Notes under the pieces: model-generated | Databases searched by the model: none | What the model saw: only the letters and a program-made list of their open reading frames with translations | What the model was told of the DNA's origin: nothing | Program-made: the position numbers and the translations under genes | Virus record (IMG/VR): IMGVR_UViG_2551306491_000003 | Direction: 5' to 3' (one strand) | Length of the DNA stretch: 13,759 nucleotides | From: a virus | Lineage: Duplodnaviria > Heunggongvirae > Uroviricota > Caudoviricetes | In this document: one piece after another, positions 12,598 through 13,759 of the stretch | Position numbering within the stretch: position 1 is the first letter of the stretch | Layout: every line of letters begins with the position of its first letter

Positions 12598-13561
12598 ATG
12601 GCAGCAGTACAAATATCAGGCGTGCTGAAAGATGGTGCGGGAAAACCAATACAGAACTGCACCATTCAACTGAAAGCCAGACGTAACAGCACCACGGTGG
12701 TGGTGAACACGGTGGCCTCTGAAAATCCGGATGAGGCAGGGCGTTACAGCATGGACGTCGAGTATGGTCAGTACAGCGTCACTCTGTTGGTGGAGGGATT
12801 CCCGCCATCACATGCCGGGACCATCTCCGTGTATGAAGATTCTCAACCGGGTACGCTGAATGATTTTCTCGGTGCCATGACGGAGGATGATGCCCGTCCG
12901 GAGGCACTGCGTCGTTTTGAACAGATGGTGGAAGAAGCAGCGCGTCACGCAGAGGAGGCGAAGAAGAATGCCGGAGAAGCAGAGACGTCCGCGAGGAATG
13001 CCGGCATATCAGCCAGTAAGGCGGAAGCGAGCGCCGCAAATGCTGATACTTCAGCAGAGGATGCATCGGAGTCAGCCCGGCAGGCGGCAGAAAGTGCAGC
13101 CTCTGCAAAGAAGTCAGAGGAAGCGTCCTCGTCCTCAGCCTCTGAGGCCGCTCAAAAAGCCAGTGAGTCATTACAAAGTGCAACAGATGCCGAGTTGTCA
13201 AAAAAGACGGCAGAAAGTGCAGCCGGTAATGCAGCCAGGGATGCAACGACCGCAACAGAAAAAGCCCGGGAATCAGCAGAAAGCGCACAGTCAGCGGAAC
13301 AAAGCAGAATAGCGGCGGAAGACGCCGTAAACAGAATTCCCACCGTGGTGGGGCCTCCCGGACCAAAGGGGGAACCGGGTCCCGCGGGTCCTCAGGGGCC
13401 GAAGGGAGATAAAGGAGAGCGTGGAGACACCGGTCCGGCAGGGGCAACCGGTGAACGGGGACCGGGAGGAGATACAGGTCCGGCAGGTCCGCAGGGGCCG
13501 AAAGGCGACAGGGGAGAGCGGGGAGAGACCGGTCTGACAGGAAGTACAGGTCCACAGGGGC
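12598..13561 (+). CDS. stf: Side tail fibre protein Stf, N-terminal 321 codons only; interrupted by the IS insertion at 13561/13562 (effectively a pseudogene); the frame reads through into IS sequence with no stop before the window end
   Basis: RBS ggagtggg then ATG 12598. N-terminus [39 protein letters not shown] closely resembles lambda Stf. A/E/S-rich low-complexity region, then collagen-like repeats. Absent from the ORF track because the frame has no stop in the window. Confidence 0.8.
13351..13561 (+). repeat. Collagen-like Gly-X-Y triplet repeat run (about 23 triplets) within stf
   Basis: Translation [70 protein letters not shown]; underlying DNA is a degenerate 9-nt periodic repeat. 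Confidence 0.85.
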
Positions 13562-13759
13562 TGAACCGCCCCGGTTTTCCTGGAGAGTGTTTTATCTGTG
13601 AACTCAGGCTGCCAGATCATCGTTTCCGATGGAAGCATAATAAGCTTTTTCTGCTTCTGCCGGAGGAGTATGGCCCAGCCTTCCCAGCAATCGTCGATTG
13701 TTATACCAGTCCACCCACGTTAGTGTGGCCAGTTCCACTTCTGCACGGTTTTTCCAGCT
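13562..13759 (-). mobile_element. IS3-family insertion sequence, IS629/IS1203-like, right-end fragment (terminal inverted repeat plus 3' end of orfB); the element continues beyond the window end
   Basis: 13562..13588 tgaaccgccccggttttcctggagagt is the imperfect inverted partner of the terminus at 289..315. Same orientation as the fragment at 1..315. Confidence 0.85.
13604..13759 (-). CDS. IS3-family transposase OrfB (DDE integrase subunit), C-terminal 51 codons; 5' end outside window
   Basis: Minus-strand translation ...[51 protein letters not shown], stop = complement of 13604..13606. The WYNNRR motif is typical of IS3-family OrfB C-termini. Confidence 0.8.

Follow-up and report, generated by a model that had tools for sequence, protein, structure and literature searches.

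The stretch of DNA analysed here (13,759 nt in all; 'the window') lies in a segment with the gene order head-tail genes, Z, U, V, G, T, H, M, L, K, I, J, lom and ECs0844, the last of which is annotated as 'phage tail fiber protein' in Sakai. Window positions 4300–13759 match E. coli O157:H7 strain Z1486 (NZ_CP062749.1) with 100% identity over 9,460 bases, and the match for 12300–13759, also at 100%, is in a single piece. Prophage Sp3 of Sakai is 99.985% identical to window 316–13561. The two mismatches across these 13,246 bp are at 2493 and 13252, and the second falls in fibre residue 219, which is Ala in the window and Ser in Sakai (A219S). Judged by its sequence, the window comes from prophage Sp3/CP-933K of E. 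coli O157:H7. This prophage is located between ybhC and ybhB/bioA, and it carries the effector genes nleB2, nleC, nleH1-1 and nleD downstream of the fibre gene. Sp3 in Sakai is without a repressor, cro and replication genes, its integrase is disrupted, and no excision/circularisation, replication or packaging was detected (PMC2669165). Genes G and T are annotated separately (window 2660–2700); the end of G reads CCGGAAAAGTCCTGA, and the lambda G-T slippery heptamer GGGAAAG, sought at the end of gene G, is absent there.

Directly 5′ of the fibre gene is lom, which encodes an Ail/Lom outer membrane protein (11939–12538, plus strand; Pfam PF06316, E 1.8e-131; also called in RefSeq). The gap between lom and stf contains a terminator-like GC-rich hairpin (AGCCCGCCGGTTCAGGCGGGCT) followed by a T run (12560–12581, plus strand; consensus scan only), placed directly after lom and 16 nt ahead of the stf start codon. 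A promoter scan of the stf-IS-stf region returned no sigma-70-like promoter sites. The 5′ portion of stf, an EPclA-type gene orthologous to Sakai ECs0844, occupies 12598–13561 on the plus strand (321 codons and 1 nt). Its reading frame starts at ATG 12598–12600 and is open to the window end, with no stop codon. PfN is matched at residues 3–134 (PF08400, E 4.2e-68), inside the window, and residues 3–111 are 89% identical to phage lambda orf-401, the 5′ part of lambda stf, at which point the similarity ends. An Ala/Ser/Glu-rich PCoil then extends to residue 251, and a Gly-X-Y run begins at residue 252 (nt 13351), of which 23 full triplets and the Gly of the 24th (13351–13561) precede an insertion sequence.

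The end of the insertion sequence begins at T 13562 (TGAACCGCCCCGG...). The window includes 198 nt of its orfB-side right end (13562–13759, minus strand) and then stops. The Z1486 record contains the complete element, which starts at window-equivalent 13562, is 1,310 bp long and runs from TGAACCGCCCCGG... to ...CCGGGGCGGTTCA; its terminal inverted repeats are imperfect, with complementarity at 22 of the first 25 positions. GGC is present on both flanks, and hence forms a 3-bp direct target duplication; its left copy is at 13559–13561, and its right copy is past the far IS end, outside the window. The minus strand of 13604–13759 (156 nt) encodes the C-terminus of an IS3-family orfB, such that the last 52 orfB codons are in the window, with the stop codon at the complement of 13604–13606. 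The orfB product has rve (E 7.8e-28) and HTH_21 (E 3.4e-18) domains. The RefSeq name of the product, encoded on the strand opposite stf, is IS3-like element IS1203 family transposase, and the CDS is joined by a programmed frameshift with an AL1L pseudoknot. We refer to the element as IS629/IS1203, a name that rests on the RefSeq product name and on there being only 1–2 nt differences from other O157 copies; consistent with the name, the element is ~1.3 kb long with imperfect repeats, has a duplication in the 3–4 bp range, and has an orfA-orfB of the programmed −1 frameshift type with a DDE (rve) domain. A full-length element with a 3-bp duplication argues for simple transposition rather than for a deletion or rearrangement. 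The insertion also creates a 5-bp GC hairpin over the junction (13557–13572; GGGGC TGAACC GCCCC), which was flagged by a terminator scan; the T run after it is weak.

We removed the IS and one copy of GGC in silico. This restored an ORF of 438 codons whose 438-aa product is identical to WP_000741874.1, the product of the intact gene at the same locus in strain FDAARGOS_293, and is identical to Sakai ECs0844 at 437 of 438 residues. An 800-bp reconstruction of the empty site had a full-length match of 100% identity in each of the 30 records listed, and the best match was at least 99% identical in 289 records. Pfam recognises PF08400 at residues 3–134 of the restored protein, the collagen family PF01391, and PF06820, i.e. 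PfC, at residues 364–427 (E 1.1e-33). The collagen domain is one uninterrupted run of 37 Gly-X-Y triplets spanning residues 252–362 (111 residues). The IS interrupts codon 322, which belongs to triplet 24 of the 37, approximately two thirds of the way through this run. In Z1486, the distal part of stf resumes immediately after the 1,310-bp IS with the remaining 13 2/3 triplets and a 76-residue C-terminal region that includes PfC; the native stop is 354 nt downstream of the insertion point, stop codon included. Traced back from the distal fragment, its frame stays open for no more than 25 nt into the IS, and its sole in-frame start candidate is a GTG 78 nt in, with no evident ribosome-binding site. 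Separate translation of the distal fragment is thus unlikely. RefSeq annotates both stf halves of the Z1486 record as incomplete tail-fibre pseudogenes flanking the IS. Two further observations concern PfC-like sequences. In the Z1486 segment L001 (L001 8261–8282 is window 12560–12581), positions 10930–11199, directly after stf, encode 89 aa, in which a Cys-rich leader of 27 residues precedes a second PF06820 domain; this ORF is likewise present in genomes whose stf is intact at the locus. Separately, in one Stx1 phage record, the feature beneath the match to the Col-PfC region is annotated as 'alternate tail fiber tip'.

The frame that starts at the stf ATG continues into the IS. The chimeric ORF comprises 399 aa, of which 321 are Stf residues and 78 are IS-derived; 66 of these 78 are encoded in the window (13562–13759, plus strand), and the stop codon is at window-equivalent 13795–13797 in Z1486, 36 nt past the window end. 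The sequence-only reading had described an stf gene with a lambda-like N-terminus, interrupted by an IS after about 23 Gly-X-Y triplets, that reads through in frame, antisense to orfB, such that a chimeric Stf-IS protein could be made. The interruption, the N-terminal likeness, the triplet count and the existence of the 399-codon frame all stand, and we reproduced the peptide quoted for the read-through exactly. The tail itself has no Pfam match. Read inward from the orfB-side end, the three frames of IS629 are open for 0, 12 and 77 codons. Since one antisense frame is open for 77 codons, any insertion with matching orientation and codon phase yields the same tail. We conclude that the read-through is not statistically remarkable, and that the long tail comes with the element whenever it is entered in that one phase. 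An exact look-up in a collection of 15 billion proteins returned neither the 399-aa chimera nor the 438-aa restored protein, but since the intact protein is in RefSeq, these absences carry no information.

Insertion of IS629 into fibre genes of this type is a recurrent event. Counting the one in the window, there are at least seven independent IS629 sites in EPclA/EPclB-type fibre genes. The other six are in STEC genomes (L002, L004, L007, L008, L009 and L010), with duplications of GTG, GTG, GAAC, CGC, GAC and CCGG, respectively. In strain 644-PT8 (L002), IS629 is at nt 568 of the same gene as here, duplicates GTG, and adds an identical 78-aa tail; L004, a fibre gene of EPclB type from an Stx phage, and L008, another paralogue, also have it. 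Where the IS was entered in a different phase, as in two further insertions, the tail is 13 aa long. Phase 1, which leads to the 78-aa tail, was found in four of the six interpretable insertions, the window's included, which as a weaker variant reading could be taken for a preference of IS629 for one codon phase in fibre genes; the excess is not significant (binomial p ~0.10). The orientation shared by the surveyed insertions is an ascertainment effect of the query. One chimera with a short tail, in strain OkiPb01711 (L009 1620–2783; 374 native and 13 IS-derived residues), is in RefSeq as an ordinary protein, WP_464288810.1, with no pseudogene label.

The Stf-IS chimera of the window might be functional: it could give the fibre a new tip, or it could co-assemble with paralogous fibres of other prophages and act as a dominant-negative subunit. 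The native start codon is kept, 399 codons are open, and O157 genomes have a median of ~10 places that match the fibre gene region. Moreover, a truncated fibre would keep PfN, the tail-attachment domain, and PCoil, a trimerisation module, while lacking PfC and 13 2/3 triplets, and the PfN-PCoil fragment of EPclA is trimeric without PfC (PMC3368898). However, the tail is encoded on the strand opposite a transposase gene, it recurs wherever IS629 lands in that phase, and the junction occurs in one genome, and thus gives no sign of selection. Also missing from the chimeric ORF is PfC, which is encoded beyond the IS; this domain functions in trimerisation, provides the nucleus for refolding of the collagen triple helix, and is the proposed cell-surface-binding end (PMC3368898). 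We therefore consider a functional chimera very improbable. A more specific version, in which the chimera is expressed during induction of co-resident lambdoid prophages, including Stx prophages with fibres of ~90–95% identity, and by co-assembly or occupancy of attachment sites acts as a dominant negative that lowers adsorption or transduction, has similarly poor prospects. Even if the chimeric protein is produced, it is unlikely to matter biologically, because Sp3 did not excise, replicate or package in Sakai. The tail appears to be a by-product without function, and the fibre function of the Sp3 copy in Z1486 has presumably been lost. The phenotypic or functional impact of the insertion is probably nil or negligible, given that Sp3 is a remnant that is fixed and cannot be induced, and that paralogous fibre genes are numerous in O157 genomes.

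The exact stf-IS junction was found as a contiguous match in only one of 5,426 complete E. coli genomes. That the junction is in a single genome, and that the restored allele has no further lesions, indicates a recent, strain-specific event. The start of the window is also occupied by an IS. Positions 1–315 (minus strand) belong to a second IS3-family element of 1,310 bp, of which the window retains only the orfA-side end. The two elements have the same orientation and are 95.4% identical, with 60 mismatches and no gaps. The second is likewise a simple insertion, in the Sp3 homologue of ECs0831, with a 3-bp duplication of GAC, and among the 5,426 complete genomes its junction occurs only in Z1486. 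Two junctions 13 kb apart that are both unique to the same genome are what might be expected if an IS copy had been misplaced into stf during assembly of a repeat-rich genome, with more than 20 IS629 copies and ~10 stf paralogues. However, both insertions are full-length, at 1,310 bp, with perfect 3-bp duplications, and removal of either IS restores the Sakai sequence exactly, a pattern of transposition that is unlike a misjoin; in addition, comparable independent insertions are found in the same gene family in other strains. We regard an assembly artefact as very improbable. The two direct IS copies bracket a 13,246-bp tail module, which is a candidate substrate for future IS-mediated deletion.

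The reading that the IS cut stf where the repeats give way to the distal domain, with IS-associated deletion of the distal receptor-binding part, accounts for a Gly-X-Y periodicity that stops at the IS and for the lack of distal sequence in a window that ends inside the IS, but it too is highly implausible, and for strain Z1486 it is refuted by the distal 354 nt of stf directly after the IS with GGC duplicated, and by a restored gene with 37 triplets, 13 2/3 of them beyond the IS, whose protein is identical to that of intact alleles. The claims of the sequence-only reading that the cut falls exactly at the end of the collagen-like repeats, and that the distal fibre part is lost from the locus, thus fail: comparison with intact stf alleles maps the insertion to codon 322, and the distal part, looked for beyond the far IS end, is intact there. 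The periodicity seems to end at 13561 only because the IS begins there. There is no stop codon or frameshift between 12598 and 13561, and the native stf stop is not upstream of 13562. That no tfa gene follows within the window is true, but trivially so, because the window ends 198 nt into the IS; beyond the IS, a tfa remnant of 156 nt is all that is found.

Hence, we are highly confident that the locus records a recent, strain-specific, simple transposition of IS629 into the Col domain of an EPclA-type fibre gene in the cryptic lambdoid prophage Sp3/CP-933K. No sequence feature contradicts simple insertion. The 1,310-bp IS629 transposed into the collagen domain, duplicated GGC and split the gene, of 438 codons, within codon 322. 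PfN, PCoil and 23 1/3 triplets remain joined to the start codon, and this 5′ piece gains a further 78 codons, since it enters an IS629 frame, antisense to orfB, that by chance is open that far. The 3′ piece (13 2/3 triplets and PfC, the trimerisation and putative receptor-binding domain) is intact directly after the IS, with no convincing start codon.

Ghosh et al. 2012 (PMC3368898) describe the architecture of EPclA as PfN-PCoil-Col(111 aa)-PfC, and give ECs0844 as its representative in Sp3. The restored gene is orthologous to EPclA (Sakai ECs0844 in Sp3; EDL933 Z0982 in CP-933K), is at the same locus after J and lom, and has the same architecture: PfN is seen in the window, whereas the 111-residue collagen domain and PfC are seen in the restored gene only. 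Unlike EPclA, the gene here is split by IS629 in Col, and its product would lack 13 2/3 triplets and PfC and have an unrelated 78-residue tail. EPclA-type fibres are found in many long-tailed Stx phages, with 80–95% identity. The likeness to lambda stf consists of the N-terminal ~110 residues and of a position after J and lom in both phages. However, lambda Stf is without a collagen domain and has a different distal region. Furthermore, in lambda, stf is broken by a frameshift and tfa is intact, whereas here stf is broken by an IS and tfa is only a remnant. Neither a lambda-type distal region nor an adjacent intact tfa is found at the locus. The only tfa-like sequence is the 156-nt pseudogene between nleC and nleH1-1, and genomes with intact stf carry the same remnant among the type III effector genes, which rules out the absence of tfa as a consequence of the IS. 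On these grounds, we assign the locus to the EPclA type, with no lambda-type Stf/Tfa pair. Laboratory lambda reportedly has an inactivated stf, split into orf-401 and orf-314 (Hendrix and Duda 1992), and offers a precedent for domesticated or cryptic lineages that lose their side fibres.

No other IS is as abundant in O157 as IS629 (PMC9943667), which is known there as a major source of gene inactivation (PMC9943667; PMC4587872), including disruption of genes of Stx2a phages (PMC4587872); an IS insertion also disrupts nu1 in Sp4 (PMC2669165). The insertion described here shares with other IS629/IS1203 polymorphisms of O157 prophages the element, its length of 1,310 bp, a short duplication and the inactivation of a phage gene. 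It differs from them in that the codon 322 site was found in one complete genome only. A catalogue of IS629 polymorphisms was reportedly compiled by Ooka et al. in 2009; we found no published description of the codon 322 site in the Sp3 fibre gene. We conclude that IS629 has here inserted, in an ordinary way that the public record already annotates, into a defective prophage and a gene that is redundant; such insertions are the standard source of small structural differences among O157:H7 strains. The main outcome is corrective: the repeats only seem to 'end' where the IS happens to have landed, and the distal part of the fibre has been displaced, not lost. Just as IS-printing makes use of IS629 positions, this insertion could be used to mark a strain or lineage. 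IEE promotes excision of IS629 in O157 (PMC9943667), and such excision could in principle restore the fibre gene. Further downstream in the Z1486 segment (L001 11376–16047), effector cargo is interspersed with fragments of YkgJ and IS256 and with the tfa remnant of 156 nt, in a layout identical to that of genomes with intact stf.
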